NCBI GenBank assembly: GCA_964619725.1
Contig: CAZUFC010000051.1
Span: 1-55,229, forward strand
DNA length: 55,229 nucleotides
Direction of reading: 5' to 3'
Origin: an uncultured bacterium
Lineage (GTDB): Bacteria > CSSED10-310 > CAZUFC01
Position numbers and translations under genes: made by a program. Every line of letters starts with the position of its first letter. Within the stretch, counting starts at the first letter, position 1. The notes beneath the pieces are model-generated. The model worked only from the letters and a program-made list of their open reading frames with translations. It did not search any database and was not told the DNA's origin. Shown here piece after piece: positions 4,203 to 51,873 of the stretch.

Positions 4203-7200
4203 ATGAAACCGGTAGAAACCAATCCTAATTTTATCGAAATTGAGCATAAAGTAATTGATTTTTGGGACAAGGAAGAATGTTTCAAAAAGTTAGTGGAGAA
4301 GAACAGGAAAGGTCCGAGGTTCAGGTTTTTAGACGGACCGATAACGGCCAATAATCCCATGGGCGTGCATCACACGTGGGGAAGGACGTTAAAAGACATT
4401 TTTCTTCGCTACAAGGCATTGCGCGGACATCACTGTCATTATCAGAACGGATTCGACTGCCAGGGACTCTGGGTTGAAGTGGAAGTGGAGAAGGAGCTGG
4501 GTTTCAAGACCAAGGCCGACATTATGGATTACGGGTTGGACAAATTCAGCGAAGCGTGCAAAAAGCGAGTTGAGAAGTATTCAGGAATACAGACGGAACA
4601 GTCGATCAGACTAGGGCAGTGGATGGATTGGGACGATTCATATTACACGCATCGCGATTCCAATATTCTGGCGATATGGCATTTTCTCAAGAAGTGCCAT
4701 GAAAACGGCTGGTTATATCGAACCGGACTGCCGATGCCCTGGTGCGCGCGCTGCGGCACGAGTCTTTCCGAGCATGAAATGTCGGGATCGTATCAGCAGA
4801 TGAGTCATCGTTCTGTATATATAGAACTGCAATTAAAGGGAAAAGATGCGAAGATACTGGTGTGGACCACGACGCCCTGGACGCTGGCGGCCAATACGGC
4901 TTTGGCGGTTCATCCTGATCTCGCCTATGTCGAAGTCGATGTTGAAGGCGAGGATGCTCCCCTGATTCTGTGCGAGGAAGCGACGCATGCGCTCAAGGGA
5001 AAGCAGTGCAAAGTGTTGAGGACTTTCAGCGGTAAAGAGCTTATAGGCATTAAATACGAACCGGTCATTTCGAATCTTCCCGTTCAGCAGAAGGTCAAGC
5101 ACAGGATTGTAGCCTGGGAGGAGGTCGACGCAAGCGAAGGAACAGGCGTGGTACATATCGCTCCGGGTTGCGGTTTGGAAGATCACGAATTGGGAAAAGA
5201 AAAGGGATTGGATGTTTTATCGCCCATTGACGATTCCGGTATATATGTTGACGGTTACGGATGGCTTGAGGGAAAATCGGTTATGAAGGTGGCCGATGAA
5301 ATTATCGACTATCTGAAACAAAACGGAAAACTGTACCACGATTACATGCACGAACACAGTTATCCCGTATGCTGGCGATGCAAGGAAGAGTTGATTTTCA
5401 GACTGGTGGACGAATGGTTCATCAATTGCAATGAAATTCGTCCCAGGATGATCAAAGCCTCGGCTGACGTACAATGGCAGCCGGACTACGTCGGCAAAAG
5501 GATGGAAGACTGGTTGAACAACATGGGAGACTGGTGCATTTCCAGGAAAAGGTTCTGGGGGCTGCCCCTGCCGTTCTATGTATGCCCTTCATGCGAAAAA
5601 CTGACCGTCGTAGGTTCATTGGAGGAACTGGAAGAACTCAGTTGGGATAAAATCGAAAACCTGCCGGAACTCCATAAACCCTGGATTGATGAGATAGACA
5701 TTAAATGTCCTCATTGCGGCGAAAAAACTCCCAGGATTCCCGAAATAGGCGATTGCTGGCTTGATGCAGGCATCGTCCCCTACAGTACTCGCGGCTATTT
5801 TGAAAACCGGGAGGAATGGAAGAAATGGTACCCCATCGAATGGATATGCGAGATGAGAGAACAGGTGAGGTTATGGTTTTATTCCATGCTCTTTATGGGG
5901 GTAACCCTGGATGACCGTTCGCCCTATGAGAGGGTCCTGACTTACGAACGAGTCGTATCGGAAGAAGGCGAGATGTTTTCTAAAACCGGGTTTATGATCC
6001 GTTTTGAGGATGCTGCGGAAAAAATGGGCGTGGATACGATGCGGTATCGTTTTGCGAGTCAGAGCGTGACAAGCGACATTCGGTTCGGATACAAGGTGGG
6101 TAATGAAGCCAGACGGCAATTATTGGCTTTCTGGAACATATATGCGTTTTTCGTAACATATGCGCGGATAGATAATCCGGAAGTAAGCAAAGTGGAAGGC
6201 TTCCCGAAAGGATTGACGGACAACGACAAATGGCTGCTGGCCAAAACGACCCGTTTCGTTGAAAAAGCGCAGGATGCCATGGAGGAATACAATACGCCTG
6301 CCTTAGTCAAAGAATTCGAATCATTCACTGAAGACGTCTCCAACTGGTATATCAGAACCAACAGAAGACGATTCTGGCGCATCGGACCCTCCGACGACAA
6401 ACTGGCCGGATACTGGTCGCTTTTCCAGGCACTTAAATCCGCACTTATCGTCATGTCGCCTATCGTTCCCTTCATGACCGAAGAAATATGGCAGAACGCA
6501 GTCAGAAATTTAGACTCAAACGCCCCTCTATCAGTGCATCATGCTGACTGGCCCGCGATTGACAAAGAATGGCGGGACGAGAAACTCCTGGCCCGGGTCG
6601 AAATAGTCAGAAATGTGGTCTACCTGGCACTGCAATTGAGGAATAAAGCCCAGATAAAAGTACGACAACCGCTGGCCGTGCTTTATTATTCCGGTCCCGC
6701 ATCAGTCAAAGAAGCCGTCGAATCGATGAAAGATACCATACAGGGCGAATTGAACATTAAAAATATCGACTTCCTGGAAGATGAAAATAAACTGATGACG
6801 GAATACCTTACATTGAATTTGGCGAAAGCTGGTCCCGCACTTCAGAAAGATTTGCCCCAGGTCAGGTCCATAATCGAAAACCTGGACGATGAACAGATGA
6901 AAAACCTGATCGAACAATACCATAATCAGGAAAAGATCAGCCTGCCGGATTGGCGTAACGACCTCAGCAAAGACATTTTTGAACTCAATTCCGCCATGAT
7001 CCCGAATACGATCTCCACCAAAGAAGACAACCTGTTCGTAGCATTGAATACTGAACTTACAGAAGAACTGATGCATGAAGGGTGGATAAGAGACCTGCTT
7101 CGTTACTGCCAGGTTTTAAGAAAAGAAGCCGGTCTGGCCGTGGAAGAACGAATTCACCTGGCAGTCGACGCGCAGGACGGAAATATTCAATCCGTCATCC

Positions 7201-7331
7201 GCAAATACGAAGATTACATCCAGGAAGAAACACTCGCGGATTCGCTGTCGGAAAATATTGATGATCCTTTGAAAACAGAGGAAATTGAAATAAACGATGT
7301 GAAAGTGCGCCTCGCGTTGAAAAGAGCGTAA
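4203..7331 (+). CDS. ileS: Isoleucyl-tRNA synthetase, type 2 (IleRS2), with GVHH signature
   Basis: 1042 aa. DGPITAN-GVHH, GFDCQGLWVE, WTTTPWTL, GTGVVHIAPG, DWCISRKRFWG, SNWYIR, C-terminal RKEAGL typical of IleRS2. Confidence 0.96.
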   Translation: MKPVETNPNFIEIEHKVIDFWDKEECFKKLVEKNRKGPRFRFLDGPITANNPMGVHHTWGRTLKDIFLRYKALRGHHCHYQNGFDCQGLWVEVEVEKELGFKTKADIMDYGLDKFSEACKKRVEKYSGIQTEQSIRLGQWMDWDDSYYTHRDSNILAIWHFLKKCHENGWLYRTGLPMPWCARCGTSLSEHEMSGSYQQMSHRSVYIELQLKGKDAKILVWTTTPWTLAANTALAVHPDLAYVEVDVEGEDAPLILCEEATHALKGKQCKVLRTFSGKELIGIKYEPVISNLPVQQKVKHRIVAWEEVDASEGTGVVHIAPGCGLEDHELGKEKGLDVLSPIDDSGIYVDGYGWLEGKSVMKVADEIIDYLKQNGKLYHDYMHEHSYPVCWRCKEELIFRLVDEWFINCNEIRPRMIKASADVQWQPDYVGKRMEDWLNNMGDWCISRKRFWGLPLPFYVCPSCEKLTVVGSLEELEELSWDKIENLPELHKPWIDEIDIKCPHCGEKTPRIPEIGDCWLDAGIVPYSTRGYFENREEWKKWYPIEWICEMREQVRLWFYSMLFMGVTLDDRSPYERVLTYERVVSEEGEMFSKTGFMIRFEDAAEKMGVDTMRYRFASQSVTSDIRFGYKVGNEARRQLLAFWNIYAFFVTYARIDNPEVSKVEGFPKGLTDNDKWLLAKTTRFVEKAQDAMEEYNTPALVKEFESFTEDVSNWYIRTNRRRFWRIGPSDDKLAGYWSLFQALKSALIVMSPIVPFMTEEIWQNAVRNLDSNAPLSVHHADWPAIDKEWRDEKLLARVEIVRNVVYLALQLRNKAQIKVRQPLAVLYYSGPASVKEAVESMKDTIQGELNIKNIDFLEDENKLMTEYLTLNLAKAGPALQKDLPQVRSIIENLDDEQMKNLIEQYHNQEKISLPDWRNDLSKDIFELNSAMIPNTISTKEDNLFVALNTELTEELMHEGWIRDLLRYCQVLRKEAGLAVEERIHLAVDAQDGNIQSVIRKYEDYIQEETLADSLSENIDDPLKTEEIEINDVKVRLALKRA

Positions 7332-7552: not shown

Positions 7553-7939
7553 TCACGCAGGAGAAATATCAGTTTTACTGAAATCATCATTGGTGAACAA
7601 AAGCGGACTTCCCGACAACCTGGAAACCGCGTAAGTCATACAATCGCCGAAATTAAGCGCTGCCGGATTTTTCCCCTTGCCGTATCGATTATAGGCATTT
7701 ATAGCTTCGCGCCAATGACCCTCTCCGAACGGAATTTCTGTAATTCCGAATTCCTGCAGAAACCGGGACAACTGAGGATTCGCATTGAAGCCAAGTCGGG
7801 CTGATATCACGATCCCCGTTTCAACCAACGTCGGACAGCTTATTCCTGAAAAGGCTGACTCGCACAGCTTTATTAATATTTCTTCATAACCGGGTTCTTT
7901 AAAAAAAACGGCAATTATCGCAGAACTGTCGATGATCAT
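7553..7939 (-). CDS. vapC: VapC PIN-domain toxin
   Basis: MIIDSSAIIA...LVE...LNFGDCMTYA...LLFTNDDF. 4-nt overlap with upstream antitoxin. Confidence 0.93.
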   Translation of the reverse strand: MIIDSSAIIAVFFKEPGYEEILIKLCESAFSGISCPTLVETGIVISARLGFNANPQLSRFLQEFGITEIPFGEGHWREAINAYNRYGKGKNPAALNFGDCMTYAVSRLSGSPLLFTNDDFSKTDISPA

Positions 7940-8208
7940 ACTCCCTCCGGTCCGAATCCAAGAATCCGCTCTTTCTCTTCCTTACTCAACTTTCGTCCCA
8001 ACTCAGTCTCCGGTATGACAGACCAGATTTCATCCTGCAGAAATTCCATTTTTCTCTGAACCTCACTCTCCGGCTTAATGAATAAGGAGAGTCTTTGCTT
8101 CCTTTCTTCCAAGGCTTTAAGCACGGCCTCTGTTTTATTCTCACCAGTGATGGAAACAACCTGATTTATCAAGTCTTCAACCTTTTTGTTTTTAATGTTC
8201 AAGGCCAT
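7936..8208 (-). CDS. vapB: VapB antitoxin (Rv0623/VapB30-like)
   Basis: MALNIKN...TGENKTEAVLKALEER. GGAGG RBS, directly upstream of vapC. Confidence 0.9.
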   Translation of the reverse strand: MALNIKNKKVEDLINQVVSITGENKTEAVLKALEERKQRLSLFIKPESEVQRKMEFLQDEIWSVIPETELGRKLSKEEKERILGFGPEGV

Positions 8209-9744: not shown

Positions 9745-9747
9745 TTG

Positions 9748-10143
9748 ATGTCGATAATATTGGATACGCATGTATGGTGGTGGGCGGTGAGCGAGCCGGA
9801 TAAATTGTCGGAAAGAGTGCGTGAGAAGATCAATGTTGTGTCTGCGTCTCAACGTTTTGCGGCATCGATCAGTTTGTGGGAATTCGTGATGATGACGGTT
9901 AAGGGGAGAATAAGTCTTGCGATATCACCGAGTGAGTGGTTCGCCCATACAATAAAGGCCGGATATTTGGGAATTCTCCCATTAACGGCAGATATAGCGA
10001 TCGAAGCATGCCGTTTACCGGGTAATTTTCACAAAGACCCGGCTGACAGGATAATAACGGCAACGGCCCGAAAATATAATGCGTTATTAATAACAAAGGA
10101 CCGCAAGATTCTTGAATATCCCGGCGTCAAATCATTGTGGTAA
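9748..10143 (+). CDS. vapC: VapC PIN-domain toxin
   Basis: ILDTHVWWWA, SISLWE, HKDPADRII, LITKDRKI. Immediately follows the antitoxin. Confidence 0.92.
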   Translation: MSIILDTHVWWWAVSEPDKLSERVREKINVVSASQRFAASISLWEFVMMTVKGRISLAISPSEWFAHTIKAGYLGILPLTADIAIEACRLPGNFHKDPADRIITATARKYNALLITKDRKILEYPGVKSLW

Positions 10144-15926: not shown

Positions 15927-16274
15927 TTGAAAAACATCAAATCAACCGGGAAAATGAAGAAAGAAGAACGCAAGTTATTGATAAAACTAAAAAAGATATT
16001 GGATAAGAGGGTCAATTTACATCAATTAATCCTTTTTGGTTCACGCGCCAGAGGAGATGCAGACCCGGATTCAGATATGGATTTATTAGTGATTCTTAAT
16101 GAGCCTGTAACACCAGAAACAAGAGATATTGTGTCTCGATGCGCATGGGTAACCGGCTTTCAGGCCGGCATAGTCATAGCGCCTGTTGTTGTATTTCGTG
16201 ATGATTGGGAAAATGGACCCGAAAGACTATCTTTGTTGGCGATGGCGGTAAGGGAAGAGGGGCAACTAGTGTGA
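15927..16274 (+). CDS. Minimal nucleotidyltransferase (MNT) antitoxin-like protein
   Basis: LFGSRARGDADPDSDMDL. True start may be the ATG at 15954. Confidence 0.9.
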   Translation: MKNIKSTGKMKKEERKLLIKLKKILDKRVNLHQLILFGSRARGDADPDSDMDLLVILNEPVTPETRDIVSRCAWVTGFQAGIVIAPVVVFRDDWENGPERLSLLAMAVREEGQLV

Positions 16275-16711
16275 AGGACAAGGAAAAGCAAATTCTGATT
16301 GATTTTCGATTGAAACAGGCTGAAGAAGCTTTGGAAGATGCCGATTTACTTTTATCATCAAGCGGGAAAACTCAGGGATCTGTAAATCGTGCCTATTATG
16401 CAATGTTTTATTCTGTTTTGGCTTTACTCCAGGACATCGGAAAAGTACCCAGAAAACACTCCGGAGCCATATCTCTTTTCGATCTTGAATTCGTTAAAAC
16501 GGGTATTTTTGCGAAAGAATTATCGAGTCATCTTCATAAAGCCTTTGAATTAAGGCAGGTTTCCGATTATCATGTCTTTAAAACAGTAGATTATAAAACC
16601 GCTGAAGACTTAATAACTCATTCCAGAAATTTCGTAAGTTCAGTTTCTGATTATTTTAAAGCAAAATATTCCGACAAGCAGGATATAAGCGGTTGTAATC
16701 ACACCCGTTAA
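16271..16711 (+). CDS. HEPN domain protein (MNT-HEPN pair)
   Basis: VNRAYYAMF, KHSG, RQVSDY. GTG start overlaps the MNT stop (GTGA). Confidence 0.9.
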   Translation: MKDKEKQILIDFRLKQAEEALEDADLLLSSSGKTQGSVNRAYYAMFYSVLALLQDIGKVPRKHSGAISLFDLEFVKTGIFAKELSSHLHKAFELRQVSDYHVFKTVDYKTAEDLITHSRNFVSSVSDYFKAKYSDKQDISGCNHTR

Positions 16712-34104: not shown

Positions 34105-34584
34105 TCATTCGAGGCTCAACCTTAAAAAGAGATTGAAATGATCGGGGATGCGTTCGCTGTTTTCAAAGGTTAGTTGATCGATATAGAGTTTATTATCGAG
34201 ATTGGTTAGGTATTTGAGAAATTGCAGGAATTCTTGGGGACTCAAGTCTCGAAAATGCAGTTCAAACATTTTTTTATCGGATGATGCAGGGCTAAGGGGA
34301 TTCAAACCGATCAACCGGGAAGTGAGTCGCAATTTATCGACGTCAGATTCCATTTCAGCCATAAAGGAAGTCAGGTCGGAATTTTTATGAGATTCGTTTT
34401 TCAGTGAATGCCCGGAAGGTTTGATAGAGTTTAGTTCATCATTGAGTTTTTCCAGGGCTGCGATATTTTTGAGCAATGAGCGGTTGGAGTCGCTAAATAA
34501 AATCAGCGACAAGCCGGCCAGGGCCAGAAGCATAAGACGTCGTGGAAAAGGATCATTTAACATTTTCGACAGTTTAGAGATCAT
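34105..34584 (-). CDS. GspM/PilO-like bitopic membrane protein
   Basis: N-terminal TM, coiled coil, and a ferredoxin-like C-terminal pattern (FLQFLKYL...YIDQL). Follows the GspL-like gene. Confidence 0.5.
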   Translation of the reverse strand: MISKLSKMLNDPFPRRLMLLALAGLSLILFSDSNRSLLKNIAALEKLNDELNSIKPSGHSLKNESHKNSDLTSFMAEMESDVDKLRLTSRLIGLNPLSPASSDKKMFELHFRDLSPQEFLQFLKYLTNLDNKLYIDQLTFENSERIPDHFNLFLRLSLE

Positions 34585-34586
34585 TT

Positions 34587-35975
34587 TTATTTCATGATAA
34601 TCAATTTGAACTGAAATCTCAGGCGGTCATGCACCGGGTCCTGGTCAGCAGAAACAATTGTAGTTTCCGGAGAGACCTTTTGAAGAAAAAGTTTTAATTG
34701 ATTCAGCTCCTTGAAACCTTTGGTTGTTCCGGAAAGCGTGCATTCGTCATTATTACATTGAAGAGAATTGAATCTCCAATGAACCTTTTGAGCGGATTGC
34801 TCGAGAAGTATTAGAGCATCGAGGAATGAGGAAATTTTCAAATATTTATTGACTGAGACGTCCTTTTTGTAATGGATTATTGCCTCTTTCACCTCATCAA
34901 TCTGCCGGAAGGGCATAAGAAAAGCGTCGTTGCTTTTTTCAAAAATTTGTCTTTTTAATCGTTCATTTTGAATCCGATAAGAAATATTTTTAAGACCCAG
35001 ATTAAGGACCAGCGATGCCGCCAGGATCACCAAAGCAGTCAACAATCCAAGAGTTTTTGATCTGATTGAATATGTCGGTTCAGCCTTAGAGAGACTTCTT
35101 TCGTTCCAGGTCATATTGTTGAAGAGCCCGTGGTTATTGAGGTTGGTTAAAGAGGTGTTTTCCATCAGATTTTCGATATCGACCTCATCGGACGCGACAA
35201 GAGCAAATCCGTAGCTTTCAATCAGCCGCTCAAGGTTATCGGCGATGGGGGCTGATCCCGTTTTTACAATTTTTACTGGGTCTTTCTGGCCCCTGCTTTC
35301 TATTGTTTTTCGCCAGGAACTCAATATGAGAGACAACTGAGGCAGCAATTCCTGATAACTGGAATCCGGGTTAACAGGGAAGGTGCGGAAATCCGCAATT
35401 CTCCGGCCGACCATAAGGCAGGCCGATATTCTTTCCCGAGAGAAATGCAGAAGCCCCAAATCAGAAGAAGGCAATTCCCGGGAGAAATATTGCATTCTGA
35501 TTTCAGTAATCAGACTTACGCCGGTGATTTTACCGCTGCATTCAGCGATGCGACTGATCAGTTTCGCTTCCAGTGCGGGATGGATCAGGTAAGCGACGAC
35601 TATACATCCGGGCGATTCATTCAGGGGAAAAGCTTTAAAGTTATAGTTCGTATCGGGTGAGGAGAACGTATCCCTTTTTATCTTAAACTTCACGCTGTTC
35701 TTGATTTTCTTTTTATCAGAGAAGGGGAAGCAATAGCGACGAACGGATATCGCTTCATCAGGCAGGACCAAATGATAGTTTCCGTTTTTAATACGTTCGT
35801 CCTTGATAATATCCTTGGCCGCGGAATCATTTTCCAGGAAATCATTCAAGGAGACCTTCATTTTGGATTCAAGTCTGAATTCATCGCCGGCGGTTGAACG
35901 TTTAAACAGGTAAACGGCTTCGTCCGTAAAAAGAATAATTCTGGAACGAATTTTTTTTGTAAAAAGGTGAGTCAA
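34587..35975 (-). CDS. GspL/PilM-PilN-like protein
   Basis: R..FPFSDKKKI motif of the GspL cytoplasmic domain, single TM, periplasmic LSGTTKGFKELNQL. Confidence 0.6.
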   Translation of the reverse strand: MTHLFTKKIRSRIILFTDEAVYLFKRSTAGDEFRLESKMKVSLNDFLENDSAAKDIIKDERIKNGNYHLVLPDEAISVRRYCFPFSDKKKIKNSVKFKIKRDTFSSPDTNYNFKAFPLNESPGCIVVAYLIHPALEAKLISRIAECSGKITGVSLITEIRMQYFSRELPSSDLGLLHFSRERISACLMVGRRIADFRTFPVNPDSSYQELLPQLSLILSSWRKTIESRGQKDPVKIVKTGSAPIADNLERLIESYGFALVASDEVDIENLMENTSLTNLNNHGLFNNMTWNERSLSKAEPTYSIRSKTLGLLTALVILAASLVLNLGLKNISYRIQNERLKRQIFEKSNDAFLMPFRQIDEVKEAIIHYKKDVSVNKYLKISSFLDALILLEQSAQKVHWRFNSLQCNNDECTLSGTTKGFKELNQLKLFLQKVSPETTIVSADQDPVHDRLRFQFKLIIMK

Positions 35976-40843: not shown

Positions 40844-42280
40844 TTATTTAAAGATCAATTTCTCCGGCATAAATTTGAAAAATTTATATTTAAAACGCGC
40901 CCTGGCTACAGGACGATAAAGACTTGAAACAATATTCGCCAGTTTTGAATCACCCAGCATTTTTATTTTATCGTCTATGCAATAGGAAGCCACTGAAATG
41001 CCGTTGATCAGTTTCATCAACTCCGGCGATTTGTCCCTTTTGACCGCGCTTTGCCAATCATATTGTCCCCATTCCTGGAGGGTATGCGGAGGCCGGTATC
41101 CTTCTTTGAGCGCTTCCTGGTACAGTTTGGTTCCGGGATATTCCTTGTAAATATGGATTGTGCCGATGTAGGCGTTGGGATTCTCCCGGAGCAGTTTGCA
41201 AACCAGGTCGACCGTCATGAAGAGGTCTTCCCGTTTTTCTGAAGGCAGTCCGACCATAAAGTTATAAAAGGCTGCCGTATTAGGATATCGGGCAAGACGT
41301 CGATTGACCTCTATCACATCGGGGATGTCGAGTTTTTTGTTGATGAGTTTAAGGATACGGGGCGATCCCGATTCGACGCCGAATTGTAAAAAACGGCATC
41401 CCGCTGCTATGAAACGGTCCAGTTCCCGGTCGGACATTCGAGTTATCCCGTCTATGCGTCCCTGGTAACCCATGGAAATATCCAGTTTATCGCCGTGGTA
41501 TCGATCAATGAATCGCTTCACCCGCTCAGGGTCAATAAAAAAACTGTCGTCTATCGCCAGAAATGAACGAATATTGTAGTCATTCATAAGACCGTGAATC
41601 ATATTCATGATCGTATCGACATTGCGGGCGCGCCACTTGCGTTTATTAAACGATTTATTGTAGCAGAAGCCGCACGCATAAGGGCAGCCGCGGGAAGTCT
41701 CTATTTCAATGACTTCCTTCTCATAGTAATAGGTATGCAGGTAATCCCTGACGTCAAGCAGATGGTAGGCGGGAGTAGGTATGGCATCCAGGTCCAGGAA
41801 GGGCGCAGCGTCGTTCCGTATGATTTTTTCAGACTTTCTGTATACTAGATTAGGAACTTTATCCACATTTTTCTTGTCGGAAAGACAATGAACCAAATCC
41901 CGTAAACCTGTTTCGCCTTCACCTGTAATGACATAATCAATGGAGCGTTCCTGCATGGTTTCTTCGGGAAAAATAGATGCGTGCACTCCGCCCCAGACGA
42001 CCGGCGTTGAGGAATGATCTTTTACGAATCGGCTGATTTCCAGCGCCTGAAGAAGCTGGGAACCCGTCATGCTGGTGATGCCTACTAACAGAGGCTTTTT
42101 CGTCAAGGCTTCCTGGAGCGTCTTTTTCCATTGGCGGTCTTTGTGCTGATCGATGATTTGTATGTCATAACCCTCCTGGTCAGCGAATACTGATACCGAT
42201 ATCAGGCCGAGAGGGAGAAAAGGTTTGAAAACCCTGTTGTAAATTCCAATTCGCGGATTAACTAATATTATGTCTGCCAT
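40844..42280 (-). CDS. B12-binding domain radical SAM protein
   Basis: PLGL, WGGVHAS, GEGE, TSRGCPYACGFC, GVESGS, YPGT. Confidence 0.92.
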   Translation of the reverse strand: MADIILVNPRIGIYNRVFKPFLPLGLISVSVFADQEGYDIQIIDQHKDRQWKKTLQEALTKKPLLVGITSMTGSQLLQALEISRFVKDHSSTPVVWGGVHASIFPEETMQERSIDYVITGEGETGLRDLVHCLSDKKNVDKVPNLVYRKSEKIIRNDAAPFLDLDAIPTPAYHLLDVRDYLHTYYYEKEVIEIETSRGCPYACGFCYNKSFNKRKWRARNVDTIMNMIHGLMNDYNIRSFLAIDDSFFIDPERVKRFIDRYHGDKLDISMGYQGRIDGITRMSDRELDRFIAAGCRFLQFGVESGSPRILKLINKKLDIPDVIEVNRRLARYPNTAAFYNFMVGLPSEKREDLFMTVDLVCKLLRENPNAYIGTIHIYKEYPGTKLYQEALKEGYRPPHTLQEWGQYDWQSAVKRDKSPELMKLINGISVASYCIDDKIKMLGDSKLANIVSSLYRPVARARFKYKFFKFMPEKLIFK

Positions 42281-42358
42281 ATTTCTTTCTGTTGAATCTG
42301 TGCGGATTCCATTTTGCCGCTCATTTCAGACGCATCTTTATTAAACGTTCAATTCCGT

Positions 42359-42387
42359 TTGACAAAACGATCCAGCATCAATAAAAT
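42359..42387 (+). promoter_or_regulatory. Sigma70 promoter for tRNA-Arg
   Basis: TTGACA, 17 nt, TAAAAT. Confidence 0.7.
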
Positions 42388-42429
42388 CATTGCGATTTCT
42401 TTCAGGATAAACATCCTGAAGTCTTCCGG

Positions 42430-42503
42430 GCGCCTGTAGCTCATCTGGATAGAGCGTCGGACTCCGGATCCGAAGGCAGGAGGTTCGAACCCTCTCAGGC
42501 GCA
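42430..42503 (+). tRNA. tRNA-Arg (anticodon CCG), CCA not encoded
   Basis: Acceptor gcgcctg/caggcgc, D arm gctc/gagc, anticodon arm tcgga-ctCCGga-tccga, T loop ttcgaac. Confidence 0.96.
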
Positions 42504-42587
42504 TTTACTCCTTTAAATATCGTTTCGACGTTTCAAAAAGCTAAAAACGACTCCGCAACTCGGGTTATCCCAACGATACCCATCCGC

Positions 42588-43022
42588 TTATTCAGCGGCA
42601 GGAGTTTCCTTTTCGTCCCTGGTCTGTTCTTCGGAAACTGTCGCGCTATCAGAAGTTTCTGCATGCGGCGACTCATCCTTCTCATCCGGCTCACTTTCCC
42701 TCGCTGATTCTTTGCCGGCAGAAGCGGGCGCTTCAGGCTCCTCTTGCCTGGGTTTTTTCGATTCCTGGACGAAGGTAAGTCTCAGATTCGTCAGCATAGT
42801 CTCGAGCACCCGGCTTTCGTTTTCGTCAAGATTTGATTTGGTTTTTTCTTTCAGCATGCCCAGCAGATCGATGTTGAAACGGGCCTGTTCCAGATCGTGT
42901 TCCAGTTTGTTCGTGGCAGGATTGGTTATCTTTCCCATTGCCATCATCGCCGCGCTGTTCAACGACCAGATCAATTGGACGAATAAAGCAGAATTCCGTT
43001 GTTCATCCGTCATTTCACTCAT
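42588..43022 (-). CDS. DUF1844 family protein
   Basis: F.QLI.SL...AMMAMG...NP...DLEQARFNIDLLGMLKEKTKSNL. GGAGG RBS. Confidence 0.88.
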   Translation of the reverse strand: MSEMTDEQRNSALFVQLIWSLNSAAMMAMGKITNPATNKLEHDLEQARFNIDLLGMLKEKTKSNLDENESRVLETMLTNLRLTFVQESKKPRQEEPEAPASAGKESARESEPDEKDESPHAETSDSATVSEEQTRDEKETPAAE

Positions 43023-43364
43023 CTTTGCACCTCCAGGTTTGAGTTACCTTAAAAGAATCAAATGCGAGAAGCATGGAAAAATTGAGAAATATTATTCAAA
43101 AATAAATAACAGAGTAAATCCATGATCCGACAAGCGCCGTTACTTATAGCCGGCACGATATTAGCGATTCCGTTGATTTATGTCAATGCCGGCTGAGAAT
43201 CCGGCGTTTCGCGTCCGGAAGAGCTATCCGATACAGCGGTGAAACGGACTCTTCTCTGGAGACCTTGCAATACGAAAATAACTGTTTTACAATAATTCGC
43301 CGCTGAACCGCCTTTCGTTCAGCTTGATTCATCTCCTTTAGATCGATTGAAACACGGGTGTGAT

Positions 43365-44825
43365 ATGCAAAAAAAAGAAAAAAATGAAGACAAAAAAAGA
43401 CTTCCCAGAAATTTTTATGTTTTGCTGGGTTGCGGCTCGTTAGGTTTTGCGGTCGCAAAAAGGTTAAGAGATTCTCATCATCAGTTTTTCATCATCGACA
43501 AGAATGCCGAAAAGGTTAAATCGCTGCAGGAAACGGATTTTGAAGCTTTTCAGGCTGATATATCGAGTCCGCAAGTCATTGACATCCTGGAAAAGTACCG
43601 TGTAAAAGGCGCATTGATCTTAAGTCCCGACAAGGCGGCGAATAAAGCGGCTCTGGAGATGATAAAGGAGTATGATCCGAAGATACTGACTATTTACAGG
43701 ATCAGCGATCCTGCAGAAGAGGAAGAGCCGGCCGACGTGAAACCGGACCTGTTTATCAATCCGTTGAGTATTCTTGCCGATGAGATTCTGGAAAAACTGA
43801 TGAATTCTGAGAGACAGTCCAAGACAAAGGAATTTCTGGAATTCATAAACCGGTATGAAAAGGGAGAAAAGATCGGCATAGTCATCCAGGACACTCCTGA
43901 CCCCGACGGAATCGCCAGCGCTATGGCGCTTTCCTATATTCTGCAACAACACGACATTAATTCTGACATCATTTTTTCAGGAGGACTCGGGCACCAGGCC
44001 AACAAAGCCATGGTTAACCTGCTGAATATCCGAATGATTAATTATTCGGAAGAAATAATCAAGAAATACAGTCATTTCGCACTGGTTGACGTGGGAGTTC
44101 CATCGGAAAACAACTCACTTCCTTCGGGAACGCACGTCGATATCATCATAGACCATCACAAAACCAATGAGCAGAAATTAAAAGCTGATTTCATCGACCT
44201 TCGTCCGGACGTAGGCGCCAATGCGACCATATTGACCGATTACTTGATGGAGATGGGATTCGAAATCGACGTCAGGCTTGCGACTGCCCTGCTTTACGGT
44301 ATCAGGTCCGACACGGATGAATTCAGAAGAAACGCCGGTCCTCTGGATTTGAAAGCCGCTTCCGCACTGTATGCACTCGCGGACAAAAACCTGTTAAGGC
44401 AGATACAAAGTCCTGCGAAAACGCAAGACACCGTGGACGTATTGGGCGACGCCATTAAAAACAAGGTCGTTAAAGGCAATTGCCTGGTGAGTAACGCCGG
44501 ATTAATTCACGATAAAGATTCGCTGGCCCAGGCGGCGGATTACCTTATCACAATGGAAGGCATCAATACCGCGCTTGTCTTCGGCATTACACACGATAAA
44601 ATCTACATCTCTGCCAGGAATACGGACGTAAGGACGAATATCGGCGCCGTGCTTGTCGATGCTTTCGATGACGTCGGTTCCTCCGGAGGTCATCGAACCA
44701 TGGCCGGCGCTCAAATACCGCTGGGCGTTTTTTCCGACACAAAGGATAAGGAAACCCTTTACAAATTAGTCGAAGAAGCCGTTAAAAACAGGTTCTTTGA
44801 AGCTCTCGGAAGAACCGTCGACTGA
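43365..44825 (+). CDS. TrkA-N (RCK) domain fused to DHH/DHHA1 phosphoesterase
   Basis: LGCGSLG Rossmann motif, PDPDGIASA, LVD, IDHH, GIRSDT, SAR, GGHRTMAG. Confidence 0.88.
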   Translation: MQKKEKNEDKKRLPRNFYVLLGCGSLGFAVAKRLRDSHHQFFIIDKNAEKVKSLQETDFEAFQADISSPQVIDILEKYRVKGALILSPDKAANKAALEMIKEYDPKILTIYRISDPAEEEEPADVKPDLFINPLSILADEILEKLMNSERQSKTKEFLEFINRYEKGEKIGIVIQDTPDPDGIASAMALSYILQQHDINSDIIFSGGLGHQANKAMVNLLNIRMINYSEEIIKKYSHFALVDVGVPSENNSLPSGTHVDIIIDHHKTNEQKLKADFIDLRPDVGANATILTDYLMEMGFEIDVRLATALLYGIRSDTDEFRRNAGPLDLKAASALYALADKNLLRQIQSPAKTQDTVDVLGDAIKNKVVKGNCLVSNAGLIHDKDSLAQAADYLITMEGINTALVFGITHDKIYISARNTDVRTNIGAVLVDAFDDVGSSGGHRTMAGAQIPLGVFSDTKDKETLYKLVEEAVKNRFFEALGRTVD

Positions 44826-44897
44826 GATATTGATCATCCGGATTAATGATTATTTCTCAAGACATTGCCGGCTCTTTAAAACAAGAATTGGCATGGA

Positions 44898-44926
44898 TCA
44901 AAAATACCTCTTTCGAGGTTACAATT
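44898..44926 (+). repeat. Dispersed 29-bp repeat, copy B
   Basis: tcaaaaatacctctttcgaggttacaatt is 26/29 identical to 7365-7393. Confidence 0.6.
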
Positions 44927-45210
44927 CGACAGAATCCCCCATCATTTTGTTTAAATTTCGATTGCGATCCCGATCCCTGGGCCGATTACTGAAACAAACT
45001 GTCAAAGTTTTGAAAAAATCGTACCCCCGGTTTGGTCAGTCCCCAAGATTTATTAATCCGTATGCTTCAAAGTCATTTGCTGTCTGAATTACCTGACCCG
45101 GCGACGCAACGACGAAAAAATTTTTGTTGCTCATTCTGAAGGCTTTCGCTAATATATCAGTTTCGTAGGATTGTCGGCTTGAAAGGCGACGCACCAGCAA
45201 GGAGTGAAGA

Positions 45211-46194
45211 ATGTCAAATCCGAAATATTCAATTGTAATTCCTGTTTACAATGAAGAAGAATTGCTCGAAGTCCTTTTTACGCGTTTAAAGACATCGCTG
45301 GAAGACCTCGATGACTCCTGGGAAGTCATTTTGATTAACGACGGCAGTAAAGATAAATCTTTAACCATGCTGAAGGAATTTCACAAGAGAGATTCCCGTT
45401 TCAAGGTACTGAGTTTTTCCAGGAATTTCGGACATCAGACGGCCATTACCGCAGGAATAAATTTCGCCCGTGGGGATGCCGTAATAATAATGGATGCGGA
45501 CCTGCAGGACCCTCCAGAAATTCTGGGAAAGTTCATAGACAAATGGAAAGAGGGATATGAAGTCGTTTATGCGGTCAGGAAGAAGAGGAAGGAGAGCGCT
45601 TTCAAAAAGTTGGCGTATTTGAGTTTTTACCGATTATTGAGGTCGGTTTCGGATATTGATATTCCTTTGGATACGGGCGATTTCTGCATAATGGACAGGA
45701 AAATAGTGAAAATTCTCAACAGGTTGCCTGAACGTAATCGTTTCGTGCGCGGAATAAGGAGCTGGTCGGGATACCGTCAGATAGGAATGGAGTATGAGCG
45801 TGACAAGAGGCTGGCCGGCGAGCCCAAATATACCATGAAGAAGCTTTTTAAACTGGCGTTCGACGGATTGATTTCCTTTTCGAAATTGCCGTTGAGAATA
45901 GCCTCAGTAATGGGTGTGGCGGTTTCCGCGTTGAGTTTTTTATACGGGATAGGCACTTTTTTTCAAAAGGTGTTCACGCAGACCACGGTACCGGGATATG
46001 CGACCACTATCATACTGATCACCTTTTTAGGCGGAATTCAGTTGATAACGATCGGGATAATCGGCGAATACTTGGGGAGAGTCTATGATGAAGTTAAAAA
46101 CAGGCCTCTGTATATTCTGTCTGATGTCATAGGTTTCGATACTGAAGCGCCTGCTGTGGAGAGTCCCGAAAATACCGTCAAGGAGGAGATATAA
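45211..46194 (+). CDS. GT2 polyisoprenyl-phosphate glycosyltransferase (GtrB/ArnC-like)
   Basis: IPVYNEE, NDGSKD, SRNFGHQ, MDADLQDPPE, DTGDF, two C-terminal TMs, GEYLGR..EVKNRP. Confidence 0.93.
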   Translation: MSNPKYSIVIPVYNEEELLEVLFTRLKTSLEDLDDSWEVILINDGSKDKSLTMLKEFHKRDSRFKVLSFSRNFGHQTAITAGINFARGDAVIIMDADLQDPPEILGKFIDKWKEGYEVVYAVRKKRKESAFKKLAYLSFYRLLRSVSDIDIPLDTGDFCIMDRKIVKILNRLPERNRFVRGIRSWSGYRQIGMEYERDKRLAGEPKYTMKKLFKLAFDGLISFSKLPLRIASVMGVAVSALSFLYGIGTFFQKVFTQTTVPGYATTIILITFLGGIQLITIGIIGEYLGRVYDEVKNRPLYILSDVIGFDTEAPAVESPENTVKEEI

Positions 46195-48069
46195 ATGCGC
46201 ATTTTATTTATTCATGCCGATTCTTTTGATTATAGAGTCACAGAAAAAACATCCGTCGCCGGCGCTCTCGGTGATATTGACGAAAAAATGGAAAAAGGAG
46301 CGGCCGAAGAAGTGTTAGTCGCTTTCATGGCCTCGGAGAAGACCGATGAAGATGATGTGGAATCAGTGGCTGAGAAGACTGCGGCGTTGCTCAAGGAAAA
46401 AGCGGAACAACTGAAAGCGAAAACCGTTATGCTGTATCCGTACGCGCATTTATCGAGTGAATTGAGTTCGCCCCGCGTGGCTGTTGACGTTCTGGGCAGG
46501 ATATACAAAAAGCTGTCGGAAGTGACGGAAATTGAAATAATGCAGGCTCCCTTCGGATACTACAAAGCTTTTAATATTTCCTGCAAGGGGCATCCGCTTT
46601 CCGAGACGGCTCAAACCGTTTTGCCGGGCAAGCGCGGTGAAAAAGCTCAGGAAGCAGGCGTTTCTGCGGCTTTACAATCGGAGAAAAAACTGGAATCCGA
46701 GTGGCTGGTATGCATGCCGAACGGTGAGATAGTGGAAGCGGAAAAAGCGGATATGAAAAAGTACCCTGATTTTCGGAAAATGTATGAATATGAGTTGCAC
46801 GGAACCAGGCAACTGGAGGAGCCACCGCCGCATATAGAGATGATGAGAAGACTGGAGATGGTTGATTATGAACCGGGTTCTGATGCAGGAAATTTCCGCT
46901 GGTATCCGAAAGGGCAACTGGTCAAAAGTCTTTTGGAAAGTTACGTCAGCGATATGGTGGTCGAATATGGAGGCATGCAGGTTGAAACTCCGGTGATGTA
47001 TGATTTTCAGCATCCGCTTTTGAGCAGTTATTTAAATCGTTTTCCCGCCCGGCAGTACATCGTCAAAAGCGACAAGAAAGAATACTTTTTACGGTTCGCT
47101 GCATGTTTCGGGCAGTACCTGATCCAGCATGACATGACCATGTCCTACAACCATATGCCTTTAAGGCTTTACGAGTTGACTCACTACTCCTTCAGAAGAG
47201 AGCAGTCGGGCGAGCTGGCGGGTTTGAAAAGACTGAGAACTTTTACAATGCCTGACCTTCATACTCTGACGACAGATATGGAACAGGCCAAACAGGAGTT
47301 TGTGAATCAGGTGAAACTGGCTCAAAAATGCGTGAAAGGTTTTGAAGTGGACGGTCAGGTTGCCGTGCGCTTCGTCAGGGACGTTTACGAAAAAAACCTT
47401 CCTTTCGTCAAAGAAATTGCAGCCATCAGTCAGAAACCCATCCTTCTGGAACTATGGGATGAACGTTTCTTCTATTTCGTTGCGAAATACGAGCTGAATT
47501 TTATCGATGCTCACGATAAAACTTCATGCCTCTCCACGGTGCAGATCGACGTCGAAAACACCGAACGCTTCGACATAACCTACGTTGACAAAGAGGGTCA
47601 AAGAAAACATCCGCTGCTTATGCATACCTCAGTTTCAGGCTCCATAGATCGCGTCCTCTATGCCATGCTGGAATCTCAGGCATTGAATATGAAAAAAGGC
47701 AAAAAACCTGAACTGCCCTTCTGGATTTCACCTGTGCAGGTAAGATTGATTCCTGTTTCAGACCGATTCGTTCAATTCGCCGAACAATTACTGCAAAAAA
47801 TTCCTTATCGATGCGATCTGGATGACCGGGAAGAAACAGTCAGAAGAAGAATTCGCGACGCGGAAAAAGAATGGATTCCCTATATACTGGTCCTGGGGGA
47901 AAAAGAAGTTTCCGGTGATATGCTGAACATCCGTTGTCGTCGCGAGGGCTCAAAAAATATGAATCTGCAACATTTCATCGAATTATTGGACAGCCGGCAG
48001 CAAAATTATCCCTGGAAAAGGCTGAATCTGCCCGCTAAACTGTCCAAAAGACCCATCTTCGTCGGATAA
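46195..48069 (+). CDS. thrS: Threonyl-tRNA synthetase, archaeal type
   Basis: Archaeal editing domain (MRILFIH, YPYAHLSS, APFGYYKAFNISCKGHPLSE), RFAACFGQ, FRREQSGE...RLRTFTMPDLH, QIDVEN, C-terminal SKRPIFVG. Confidence 0.93.
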   Translation: MRILFIHADSFDYRVTEKTSVAGALGDIDEKMEKGAAEEVLVAFMASEKTDEDDVESVAEKTAALLKEKAEQLKAKTVMLYPYAHLSSELSSPRVAVDVLGRIYKKLSEVTEIEIMQAPFGYYKAFNISCKGHPLSETAQTVLPGKRGEKAQEAGVSAALQSEKKLESEWLVCMPNGEIVEAEKADMKKYPDFRKMYEYELHGTRQLEEPPPHIEMMRRLEMVDYEPGSDAGNFRWYPKGQLVKSLLESYVSDMVVEYGGMQVETPVMYDFQHPLLSSYLNRFPARQYIVKSDKKEYFLRFAACFGQYLIQHDMTMSYNHMPLRLYELTHYSFRREQSGELAGLKRLRTFTMPDLHTLTTDMEQAKQEFVNQVKLAQKCVKGFEVDGQVAVRFVRDVYEKNLPFVKEIAAISQKPILLELWDERFFYFVAKYELNFIDAHDKTSCLSTVQIDVENTERFDITYVDKEGQRKHPLLMHTSVSGSIDRVLYAMLESQALNMKKGKKPELPFWISPVQVRLIPVSDRFVQFAEQLLQKIPYRCDLDDREETVRRRIRDAEKEWIPYILVLGEKEVSGDMLNIRCRREGSKNMNLQHFIELLDSRQQNYPWKRLNLPAKLSKRPIFVG

Positions 48070-48087
48070 AAAGGACCCCGCAGAATC

Positions 48088-48498
48088 ATGAACGACAATC
48101 ATCGCAAAAAAAAATTGAAGGGAAAATTCGGCTATGCATTGAAACGTTTCAGCGCGGGTATGTTTAAAAATGTCCGCATAATGAGAGCCAGGTATCATAT
48201 CTCTTCCCTGACCCGCTTGAAAAATCAAAAATTCAAGGAATTGGGAATGAAAACTTTTCGGTTGATCAAAACGAACAGAATTGAGATTCCCGAAACGGAG
48301 AAGACGACGAAAGAGCTGAGAGAGCTTGAAGAGAAAATTAATCAGCGCGTGGAAGAAATTAATTCCATCATCCTGGATGATAATTATCCGGAAAGAAATT
48401 TGCTCTCATCTGAGAAGGAAGAGGCAATCCGAAAAGAAGAAAGTCGCCCCGCTTCAACTGACGTTTCAGTCGACCCTGATGCGGAATTGACGGAATAG
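48088..48498 (+). CDS. Hypothetical protein (coiled coil)
   Basis: Same strand, 19 nt after thrS, AAGGA RBS. Confidence 0.6.
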   Translation: MNDNHRKKKLKGKFGYALKRFSAGMFKNVRIMRARYHISSLTRLKNQKFKELGMKTFRLIKTNRIEIPETEKTTKELRELEEKINQRVEEINSIILDDNYPERNLLSSEKEEAIRKEESRPASTDVSVDPDAELTE

Positions 48499-48544
48499 GA
48501 TTCTCAGGAGCGGAACGGGCCTGGTTCCGGATAATCTTTTCGCT

Positions 48545-49216
48545 TTAGTATTTTAACAGGTAATAAAAGAATTTCGCATACTCATTAAATATGGAGATCA
48601 GCCCCGCCTCGGTTTTCCACCAGTTTGAGCAGTTGAATCGCCACGAAGGAGAGGGAGCGGTCATGAGTTTTACGGCATCGCCTTCTAATATTTTCTGAAA
48701 TATCCAGGAGGCGCGGCGGGAGTGATAGAAGGAAGTCACGAGAATAACCTTATCGATTCGGTTTCCCAGGCAGTATTGTTTTAATTGAAGCGCCTCATCA
48801 TAGGTGGAAGTAACTCTGCCGTACGCCTGCGGAATGACTATGTCGTCGGCGGATACTCCCTGGGAAATCAAATAATCCTTCACGACCGATGCCTGTTCGG
48901 GTATTAATCCCTGCTTTTCAGCCGGAGACAATTCCTTCGCAAACAGAAGAATTTTCGGAGCAAAATTCATTAAGTATAACTCGACGGCCAAAGGAGGCCG
49001 CATGCTGATTTCTCCTGACAGCACAACGATCAGTCCGGCGGGTTCCAGGGTATCTGAAACCGTTAAAAACTGGGCTGTTCTCATCAGTAAATAATCTCGC
49101 TCGGACCATAACGCGCCGATGAAGAATCCCAGTATCAGCAGAAGCAACAACAACGCGCTCAAAGAACGTTTTATCCTGCGCCTTGCCGATTTCTTCGATT
49201 CACTTTTGTTCATCAA
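48545..49216 (-). CDS. YdcF/DUF218 (ElyC/SanA-like) protein
   Basis: N-terminal TM, VVLSG, STYDEA, LVTSFYHSRRA, EYAK. Confidence 0.88.
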   Translation of the reverse strand: MMNKSESKKSARRRIKRSLSALLLLLLILGFFIGALWSERDYLLMRTAQFLTVSDTLEPAGLIVVLSGEISMRPPLAVELYLMNFAPKILLFAKELSPAEKQGLIPEQASVVKDYLISQGVSADDIVIPQAYGRVTSTYDEALQLKQYCLGNRIDKVILVTSFYHSRRASWIFQKILEGDAVKLMTAPSPSWRFNCSNWWKTEAGLISIFNEYAKFFYYLLKY

Positions 49217-49284
49217 TGAATATGGCCGTCGAGTTTTTTGACAAATGTAAATTCAGACCTATGTCGAGTTAAACTTTTATCGGG

Positions 49285-49470
49285 TCAGCCGCTCGTGAAA
49301 AAATCAGGAACGCAAAGCAATAATGTGCCTATGACGGCTATGATAAGTCCTACGATTGCACTGAATGCTCCGATTATGTCATACGGCTTCTTCGCATCAA
49401 ACGCTGCTTTGAAACCGGGAATTAAAAACGCCAACCCGATGAAAATCGTTATGAAATGATAATAGTTCAT
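49285..49470 (-). CDS. Small two-TM membrane protein
   Basis: Two hydrophobic helices. GAGGAG RBS. Confidence 0.6.
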   Translation of the reverse strand: MNYYHFITIFIGLAFLIPGFKAAFDAKKPYDIIGAFSAIVGLIIAVIGTLLLCVPDFFTSG

Positions 49471-50178
49471 AAGGAGAACTCCTCTGGCAAATTAATGCGC
49501 CGTCGACCGGATTTCCGTCGTTAGCGCCGAAATTCAACGTCAAAAAACCAGGTGAATCCAGACCGACTTATTCACGGATAATATAAATAGCGCTGACTAA
49601 AAGAAAAAACAAGCCGCTTTTGAAATTGCTGTTCCCAGCAGGAAATTTCATTTTTTGAGATGCTCAAGCTGAATATTCAGGCTGAAAACAGAGTTATCTC
49701 TTTAATCATAAATGTTGATGGATCGTACGGTACACGGGTCGCCGGCTGCTCCGGCTTTAAAAAAAATAGGGGACCGTTTCTTTTCGAAAACGGCCCCTTT
49801 CCCACCTTAAAAGTACCAGGAAAGCCTCAGACATATCTGACGCTCTTCTCATATATATAGACGTTTTTTTTCGACAAAATGCCCACTTGAAATTCAATTT
49901 TTTTTTGCCGGACAGCGCTTTTTTTGCTATCCCTTTGGAAATAAAGTAAAAAAAAATTTTTATTTTTTCTGAAAATATTGGGAAATTTTGCATGATCAGT
50001 TAGGCGCTTTTATTCCCGAAGGTCCTGCAGTGACGGTTGTGCAAAAATGAGCATGAAAGAGGTCCATCCAGTCATCCCTCCAACCACCCTTTTTCAGTTT
50101 TCATCCAATTAAGAGGAAACGCCTACCTGGAAGAGCGCCTTTATTTGATCAGTCCCCTATATGTCAACTTTTGTCTGC

Positions 50179-50208
50179 TTGACAGTCATTTGGGAAATAT
50201 TTTATGAT
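50179..50208 (+). promoter_or_regulatory. Sigma70-type promoter upstream of gdhA
   Basis: TTGACA, 18 nt, TATGAT. Implies a leader of about 290 nt. Confidence 0.55.
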
Positions 50209-50376
50209 AGAGGTTGTCAGTTGCCAATCACCGCATTAGATTTCCAATTACTGCTCTTCAGGCGATCATCAGATTCCGGGGCTCTGCAGACGATAGACGT
50301 TCCGCGGCAAATGCGGGACGATACGTTTCATAATGAATGAGAGGGGCTTTGATTTCCGTTGTTTGAAATGAAATGA

Positions 50377-51873
<1,497 letters not shown>

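Follow-up and report, generated by a model that had tools for sequence, protein, structure and literature searches.

Does a bacterium that carries a threonyl-tRNA synthetase (ThrRS) of the archaeal type depend on that enzyme, and where did it obtain the gene? The question is raised by thrS at positions 46195 to 48069 of contig CAZUFC010000051.1 (assembly GCA_964619725.1), from an uncultured bacterium of the GTDB lineage CSSED10-310. The DNA analysed, referred to as the window, is the whole contig, C51 of the source assembly G000, with a length of 55,229 nucleotides. The assembly has 9.17 Mb in 344 contigs and is 90.9% complete and 6.5% contaminated; it comes from a microbial-mat metagenome. 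For comparison, 13 further genomes from this phylum were used, with no relative closer than phylum level among them. The account considered probable as a whole is that the gene encodes the housekeeping ThrRS of the cell, that it was acquired in an old transfer, and that the native thrS was lost.

Domain structure and family membership

The gene and its domains are as follows.

46195 to 48069, + strand: thrS, archaeal-type ThrRS of 624 amino acids (open reading frame (ORF) with an ATG start; matches to NF003068 and TIGR00418)
46195 to 46617, + strand: DTD-like editing domain, residues 1-141 (PF08915 tRNA-Thr_ED, 7e-44, 149.7 bits against a cut-off of 30.2)
47056 to 47676, + strand: class II catalytic core (tRNA-synt_2b), residues 288-494 (PF00587, 7e-20)
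47737 to 47991, + strand: HGTP_anticodon domain, residues 515-599 (PF03129, 6.6e-14, 52.3 bits)

The predicted protein matches NF003068, an NCBIfam equivalog, at 799.4 bits against a cut-off of 484 over model positions 1-612 of 613, and scores 483.4 against a cut-off of 383.65 with TIGR00418. The editing domain PF08915 is described by Pfam as 'archaea-specific'. Residues 1-146 align end to end with 2hl1_A and 1y2q_A, solved chains of archaeal ThrRS editing domains (E about 1e-37), and the remainder of the protein with catalytic fragments of bacterial and eukaryotic ThrRS (E about 1e-32). Neither TGS nor tRNA_SAD (N2) was found in the window thrS with Pfam at E <= 0.01. The initial annotation, made from the letters alone, had proposed an archaeal-type ThrRS lacking these two domains and had called for a profile search for the archaeal editing domain; the PF08915 and NF003068 matches bear it out. 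The motifs on which it drew are at residues 81-87 (YPYAHLS), 118-126 (APFGYYKAF), 129-137 (SCKGHPLSE) and 619-624 (RPIFVG). The AHLS, FGYYK and KGHPLSE motifs are common to the full-length archaeal and bacterial-host enzymes.

In the catalytic core, motif 2 (FRREQSGELAGLKRLRTFT, residues 333-351) and motif 3 (GSIDR, residues 482-486) are intact. Residues C304, H356 and H477, which are presumably the zinc ligands, lie opposite E. coli C334, H385 and H511 in an alignment with solved bacterial ThrRS chains. The E. coli numbering was anchored on H309 of PMC4389257, a position that proved to be a histidine in the alignment.

The three-domain layout and the length are those of archaeal ThrRS such as the Pyrococcus abyssi and Methanosarcina enzymes (NF003068; 'ThrRS-R' in the available text of PMC3191353). 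Unlike these, the window enzyme has a bacterial host, belongs to its own sub-branch ending in RPIFVG, and has at most 54% identity to the archaeal loci among the best 80 relatives. With the bacterial ThrRS of E. coli and of this phylum it would share the reaction, the tRNA-Thr substrate and, by alignment, the zinc ligands and class II motifs. It differs from that TGS and N2/tRNA_SAD type in its 26-28% identity over the catalytic half, an unrelated editing domain, and the lack of TGS, of linkage between thrS and infC and of a known leader. In the trees described below, a branch of length 5 (support 100) lies between it and the three to five bacterial-type ThrRS from the same phylum, and it is not placed within the bacterial type. 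The crenarchaeal split system, composed of ThrRS-cat and a free ThrRS-ed, has an editing domain homologous to window residues 1-155. These residues match NF011500, the model for free ThrRS-ed, at 180.2 bits, below the cut-off of 362; unlike the split system, the window protein has editing and synthesis fused and a complete catalytic core. By every sequence feature of archaeal-type ThrRS that was testable, the predicted protein is of that type. On the same kind of evidence it is not a bacterial-type ThrRS, a free crenarchaeal editing protein or a second-copy resistance gene.

Gene start and transcript

The immediate context of thrS is given by three further features.

45211 to 46194, + strand: GT2 glycosyltransferase gene (PF00535, 1.6e-34)
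46180 to 46186, + strand: AAGGAGG ribosome-binding site, inside the end of the GT2 gene and 8 nucleotides before the ATG (read from the sequence)
48088 to 48498, + strand: ORF of 136 amino acids, 18 nucleotides after thrS (no Pfam match at E <= 1e-5)

The GT2 stop codon, TAA at 46192-46194, abuts the thrS ATG at 46195, which leaves no room for a leader between them, and no Rfam leader was found in 42000-50600 at E <= 1, where the sole match is a tRNA. The abutting codons, the ribosome-binding site and the missing leader space reported initially agree with these coordinates. GT2 is probably the first gene of the same transcript, on which thrS rides, and the 136-amino-acid ORF is possibly co-transcribed. 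Promoter and terminator scans gave counts no higher than in shuffled sequence; a terminator-like hairpin at 48511-48529, after the 136-amino-acid ORF, is one of these sites that are no commoner than in shuffled sequence. Nothing in the reading frame suggests that thrS is a pseudogene.

Soundness of the contig

An archaeal-type gene in a bin such as this could be an artefact, caused by a chimeric join or by the wrong binning of another organism's contig. The bin is from a metagenome and its estimated contamination is 6.5%. Mislabelling does occur, as in the case of a 'Proteobacteria' metagenome-assembled genome (MAG) whose row in the trees, L090, sits almost on a Thermoplasmata sequence. To set against this, Logan contigs of three runs from one study (X1, probably the source sample, X2 and X3) were mapped on positions 43000-50500. 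The GT2/thrS junction is crossed by contigs of 1700 nucleotides in X1 (44900-46599), 764 nucleotides in X2 (45950-46713) and 178 nucleotides in X3 (46065-46242), and the junction of thrS with the next ORF is crossed by contigs of all three runs. There are no differences in the bridging contigs, and the X1 depth, which had been proposed as a check of the locus, is even at 7.1-8.6. The spacer upstream contains a further feature that bears on the binning.

44886 to 45045, no strand assigned: one copy of a dispersed repeat of about 160 nucleotides, in the spacer upstream of GT2-thrS and 166 nucleotides upstream of GT2

This repeat has 384 other BLAST matches (high-scoring segment pairs) on 181 other contigs of G000 and matches 1 of the 41 genomes searched, which is G000 itself (0/40 others). 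The depth on it is 83.9, compared with about 8 in the flanks. A repeat specific to G000 thus adjoins GT2-thrS, and this links contig C51 to the bin. Composition and codon usage are also native. The GC content is 45-47% across thrS, 45.3% in the contig and 47.1% (standard deviation 2.7) in the genome; GC at third codon positions in thrS is 0.511, against a genome mean of 0.519 +- 0.04, and thrS ranks fourth among 27 window genes in the closeness of its codon usage to that of the genome. The two best matches of the window isoleucyl-tRNA synthetase (IleRS) among the 40 other genomes are in two same-phylum genomes (44% identity). Without contig C51, the bin would have no thrS. A chimera or mis-binned contig is very unlikely, to the point of being scarcely credible, and the assembly is read as sound at thrS.

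The window had been called clearly bacterial on account of lpxH, ppiD and gspL/M-like genes. This stands for ppiD, as the window proteins include a PpiD-like protein (SurA_N_3 and rotamase), Maf, a ComF-like protein and folB/folK. The supposed lpxH matches the generic Metallophos family only, and the supposed gspL/M ORFs (34108-35975) gave no Pfam match. The bacterial nature of G000 is instead based on the presence of infC, rplT and a lipid A acyltransferase family gene and on kinship to the 13 same-phylum bacterial genomes; infC was present in 10/10 bacterial control genomes and in 0/4 archaeal ones.

A 5.1-kb cassette bounded by a 49-nucleotide direct repeat (45031/50144, 71% identity) was considered, as 45006 and 50146 are linked in one X1 contig, separated by 27 other letters. 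The left end falls within the multi-copy repeat and depth rises only minutely at the right end, and this was read as an effect of that repeat and not as an empty site; the join may represent an alternative arrangement. The 96-amino-acid ORF at 44797-45087 that overlaps the repeat is probably not a gene.

Probable replacement of the native thrS

The TIGR00418 scan of G000 gave six matches, with only the window thrS above the cut-off; the remaining five represent different class II synthetases or a stretch resembling TGS. When five bacterial-type ThrRS of the same phylum were used as tblastn queries against G000, they matched the catalytic half of the window thrS (at the 26-28% identity given above) and a kinase fusion on contig C11, with two further weak matches on C95 and C82, and no remnant of a bacterial-type thrS was found. 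PF08915 is found in 0/13 of the other genomes of the phylum. Twelve of these have a strong ThrRS match limited to the catalytic half of the archaeal-type model, and the thirteenth, which is 69% complete, has none. The same-phylum ThrRS have tRNA_SAD, core and anticodon domain in 9/9 of those scanned, and TGS in 2/9 (E <= 1e-5).

In 10 of the 12 same-phylum genomes having it, the bacterial-type thrS is located directly upstream of infC. The infC-rplT genes of G000 lie 54.6 kb into an 81-kb contig and are preceded by acyltransferase and phosphorylase-family genes. The ancestral place of thrS is therefore assembled and empty, because infC-rplT is internal to this contig and other genes are found upstream. 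Counterparts of these upstream genes were not found near thrS-infC in eight loci of seven phylum genomes, and no clean deletion scar is demonstrable upstream of G000 infC. The initial annotation had left open whether the archaeal-type gene replaced or supplemented the native one; as far as the 91%-complete assembly shows, with a sole thrS and an empty infC slot, it is replacement.

On this evidence it is likely, and not certain, that the archaeal-type thrS has replaced the native bacterial-type gene, because thrS has another location in two phylum genomes and a tenth of G000 is absent from the assembly. These same points weigh against the conclusion. G002 and G004, of the same phylum, have thrS away from infC, so that the empty slot alone is no proof. 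With the assembly 90.9% complete and 6.5% contaminated, a second thrS could lie in the missing part.

The window gene would then be a supplementary ThrRS, for instance an inhibitor-insensitive or stress isoform, with the native thrS in the unassembled tenth. Such coexistence is seen in Streptomyces triticirhizae, which has a bacterial-type thrS of 623 bits as well as an archaeal-type one of 452.6 bits; unlike this case, the window type is alone in its assembly. Archaeal ThrRS are reported to resist borrelidin, with 12 of 18 contact residues differing in the archaeal enzymes, which have Met in place of human Q460 and Ser in place of human A592, and E. coli H309 and L489 mutants are described as 300- to 1000-fold resistant (available text of PMC4389257). 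Four borrelidin-linked positions of the window enzyme differ by alignment from the E. coli residues: M352 for Q381, S479 for A513, Y279 for H309 and N455 for L489, the human positions corresponding to Q381 and A513 having been mapped from the paper's offset and the motif context. Because these four differ from the bacterial residues, an altered inhibitor sensitivity of the predicted enzyme, as was suggested at first, is plausible.

Against a second copy, the usual place of thrS upstream of infC is assembled and has other genes there, the tblastn search gave no bacterial-type thrS fragment, and five other bacterial genomes have the archaeal type alone. Nor do the neighbours of the gene form a biosynthetic gene cluster. 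They are GT2, a DHH/TrkA_N protein, DUF1844 and DUF218 proteins, and glutamate dehydrogenase. The coexistence with a housekeeping thrS that marks a self-resistance gene is not seen, as there is one thrS in the assembly. A supplementary ThrRS is improbable for these reasons, and a gene that is simply the cell's only ThrRS can be explained without inhibitor tolerance.

Origin of the gene

One genome per prokaryotic species was scanned; a relative is encoded at 327 loci, and the best 80 of these were retained. Among the 80, the 31 with the highest identity (54-60%) all have bacterial labels: Desulfobacterales or 'Deltaproteobacteria', Candidatus Eisenbacteria, unnamed bacteria and one 'Gammaproteobacteria' MAG. 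The next loci, at 48-54% identity, are from actinomycetes (Streptomyces triticirhizae, Micromonospora qiuiae, Pseudonocardiaceae and Dermatophilaceae), Gemmatimonadota and archaea. Three maximum-likelihood trees were made by quick IQ-TREE searches with LG+C20, using bacterial-type ThrRS of the window's phylum as outgroup. The 74-row tree omits 8 near-duplicate Methanothrix-like rows and 4 partial loci, the second tree has 42 rows, and the 60-row tree has 18 further archaeal sequences added from relatives of an Altiarchaeota genome. In the full sample around that genome, the enzyme is present in 55/61 archaeal genomes.

The unrooted shape is identical in the three trees. The window thrS is in an unresolved three-way split with the Desulfobacterales group and the Eisenbacteria-labelled group (Shimodaira-Hasegawa-like approximate likelihood ratio test (SH-aLRT) 98). 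Outside this split are the actinomycetes, then Gemmatimonadota, and one branch (97-98) leads to Thermoplasmatota, Hydrothermarchaeota and other archaea. The all-bacterial clades that contain the window sequence have 29 or 12 rows (SH-aLRT 98) and, more widely, 40 or 20 rows (97-98) in the 74- and 60-row trees. The archaeal-type ThrRS of Desulfobacterales, Eisenbacteria-labelled MAGs, Gemmatimonadota and actinomycetes are in the same sub-branch as the window enzyme, with 52-60% identity. The C-terminal RPIFVG, or a near variant ending in FVG, is common to the bacterial rows, and most archaeal rows end in R-P-K/R-F-R/V. The window thrS is thus, by sequence, a member of a bacterial branch of the archaeal-type family and not a lone archaeal import. 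The phylogeny proposed initially gives a divided answer: the gene does group with the archaeal type and apart from the bacterial type, and its nearest relatives are bacterial, not archaeal.

A transfer straight from an archaeon into this lineage, independent of the other bacterial cases, was what the initial annotation had in mind. It has in its favour the long end branch of the window sequence (0.53-0.56) in an unresolved three-way split, archaeal sequences that reach 53-54% identity compared with 60% for the best bacterial one, and the microbial-mat metagenome source. The position inside the bacterial branch in all three trees, in clades that hold bacterial rows only, the bacterial labels of all of the 31 closest loci among the best 80, and the FVG ending from which most archaeal rows differ all speak against it, and a direct inter-domain transfer into this chromosome is highly improbable. 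It is most likely, judging from the trees, that this lineage received thrS from another bacterium. Any step from archaeon to bacterium would be older, because the window gene lies inside a bacterial branch that is joined to the archaea by a single branch. The acquisition by this lineage itself is suggested to be old, because the codon usage is native and the branch is long.

The direction of the older step depends on the root. The outgroup attaches within the archaea in the 74- and 60-row trees, which makes the bacterial sequences nested and derived. Several points weigh against this: in the 42-row tree the outgroup joins at the polytomy of the window, Desulfobacterales and Eisenbacteria sequences, so the root is unstable; the outgroup branch has about 5 changes per column and meets long branches in the 74- and 60-row trees; the support values are SH-aLRT from quick searches; and the end branch of the window sequence is long. 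On the unrooted shape, the wide archaeal distribution (55/61) and the literature, we infer that a movement from archaea to bacteria would be the more economical reading.

Row L090, from the MAG labelled Proteobacteria, is next to a Thermoplasmata sequence with end branches of 0.043 and 0.046. This ThrRS is probably from an archaeal contig in a bacterial bin.

The tRNA-Thr substrate

A foreign ThrRS must charge the tRNA-Thr of its host. The three tRNA-Thr genes of G000 (GGU, UGU and CGU) all have U73, G1-C72 and C2-G71, which is the set reported for archaeal enzymes. U73 is described as conserved in archaeal tRNA-Thr, with the role of an identity element in Haloferax, and as a supposed requirement of the archaeal editing domain, and bacterial tRNA-Thr is described as having A73 or U73 (PMC9976931 and PMC11295145, in their available parts). 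By a pattern search that finds only tRNA-Thr with a common D-arm, U73 is present in 12/12 tRNA-Thr of five other host genomes of the archaeal-type enzyme and in 27/27 tRNA-Thr found in 12 other genomes of the phylum, which use the bacterial-type enzyme. The pattern found no tRNA-Thr in G012 and G034, and a looser pattern in G034 gave tRNA-Cys only.

The U73 match says little in favour of the replacement, as 24/26 other, unrelated bacterial genomes sampled also have U73. A special tRNA pre-adaptation of the hosts was rejected, since U73 occurs equally in users of the bacterial enzyme (27/27; 24/26 genomes). A plain reading of these sequences is that most bacteria already offer a compatible tRNA-Thr. 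Since most bacteria have the U73 substrate, no tRNA change would therefore be needed.

Archaeal-type thrS in other bacteria

The archaeal type is the only thrS above the cut-off in two Desulfobacterales genomes, one Eisenbacteria genome and one Gemmatimonadota genome. In G034, a 100%-complete bacterium of 1.6 Mb, a very divergent archaeal-type copy (L009; C83:61495-63300) far outscores every other match, although its 380.5 bits fall slightly short of the TIGR00418 cut-off. It has an end branch of 1.77 and is the only ThrRS of the genome. The full-length enzyme is present in 3 of 121 sampled genomes from the order of one of these Desulfobacterales.

Fourteen Desulfobacterales-clade loci among the best 80 (L011-L014, L016-L022, L029, L031 and L037) have the archaeal-type thrS directly upstream of infC, with rplT also present in 10. 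As this is the slot of the bacterial thrS, these loci look from their arrangement like a replacement in place. The window differs from these loci, as its thrS is behind GT2 and its neighbours do not recur: none of six window neighbours was found near thrS in the 80 related loci, and no GT2 homologue is beside thrS in them.

ThrRS-R is described as confined to archaea (PMC3191353; PMC4427996, both in their available text). No description of archaeal-type ThrRS in bacteria was found in the literature searched, with supplements (e.g. PMC5424206 Fig. S4 and Text S1) outside its scope, and within this literature the pattern of bacterial carriers seems not to have been written up. Annotation models would name such genes correctly, and the genes are publicly visible. 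It is a tentative proposal, and somewhat less probable than its contrary, that one archaeal-derived thrS lineage has spread over at least five bacterial phyla (that of the window, Desulfobacterota, Eisenbacteria-labelled MAGs, Gemmatimonadota and Actinomycetota) and has repeatedly ousted the bacterial enzyme, in Desulfobacterales at the very thrS-infC slot, this spread being perhaps favoured by insensitivity to natural ThrRS inhibitors such as borrelidin and eased by the common U73 tRNA-Thr. The pattern may be undescribed, because papers describe this enzyme type as restricted to archaea.

A short form of the editing domain is also encoded in G000 (C159:6546-6947; L008:1501-1905). Missing from this form are the YK of GYYK and, in KGHP, the H, both of which are kept by all full-length enzymes. 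The same short form is found in G035, which has a bacterial thrS, and in 21/121 sampled genomes of a Desulfobacterales order. A link of this free domain with SepRS was rejected, as there is no SepRS in G000, where the best match has 61.9 bits against a cut-off of 380.65.

Other features of the window and genome

The IleRS of the window (4203-7331) has 1042 amino acids and is of a long form with a C-terminal DUF5915. The same long IleRS is found in G001 and G002 (44% identity), and most genomes of the phylum have an IleRS of about 930 amino acids with about 30% identity. With long and short forms present, a second synthetase of the window is therefore also two-typed in the phylum.

The kinase fusion at C11:54646-56313 of G000 (L162:2647-4314, - strand) is a protein of 556 amino acids with a uridine-kinase/PRK domain at residues 293-491. 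Its N-terminal part resembles that of bacterial ThrRS (27-29% identity over 150-185 residues) and gave no Pfam match. The window also contains PIN-domain toxin genes, one with an Rv0623-like antitoxin, and a HEPN-domain gene (7553-8208, 9745-10143 and 16205-16711), as well as one tRNA gene.

42430 to 42503: tRNA-Arg(CCG)

Proposed role and meaning

The window thrS would be the housekeeping ThrRS of the cell, expressed and active. Threonine would be activated on a zinc-containing class II active site and the host tRNA-Thr charged with it, and mischarged Ser-tRNA-Thr would be cleared by the N-terminal DTD-like domain instead of the bacterial N2. The gene would have been acquired horizontally long ago, most likely from a bacterium of a group already having the archaeal-derived thrS. 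It would have been inserted at a new place behind the GT2 gene, where the GT2 transcript and the ribosome-binding site are used, and the original bacterial thrS upstream of infC would then have been lost.

From its sequence and context, the gene is real and looks functional, and it has probably replaced the native one; it is of a kind already known. It is a classic pattern for a foreign type to displace an essential synthetase. The two types of bacterial IleRS are a parallel (available text of PMC4861432), in which a foreign-type synthetase replaces or accompanies the native one and antibiotic sensitivity may change, although a different enzyme family is involved.

The two types of ThrRS, an essential enzyme, proofread with unrelated domains. 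Complete dependence of a bacterium on the archaeal one would mean that the two types are interchangeable in bacterial translation, and would provide a natural test of the recognition of bacterial tRNA-Thr by the DTD-like domain. Given the non-bacterial residues at the four borrelidin-linked positions, such bacteria may be naturally tolerant of ThrRS inhibitors, which is of relevance to antibiotic research. The wider spread of the enzyme and its possible repeated replacement of the native type among bacteria are the part worth following.

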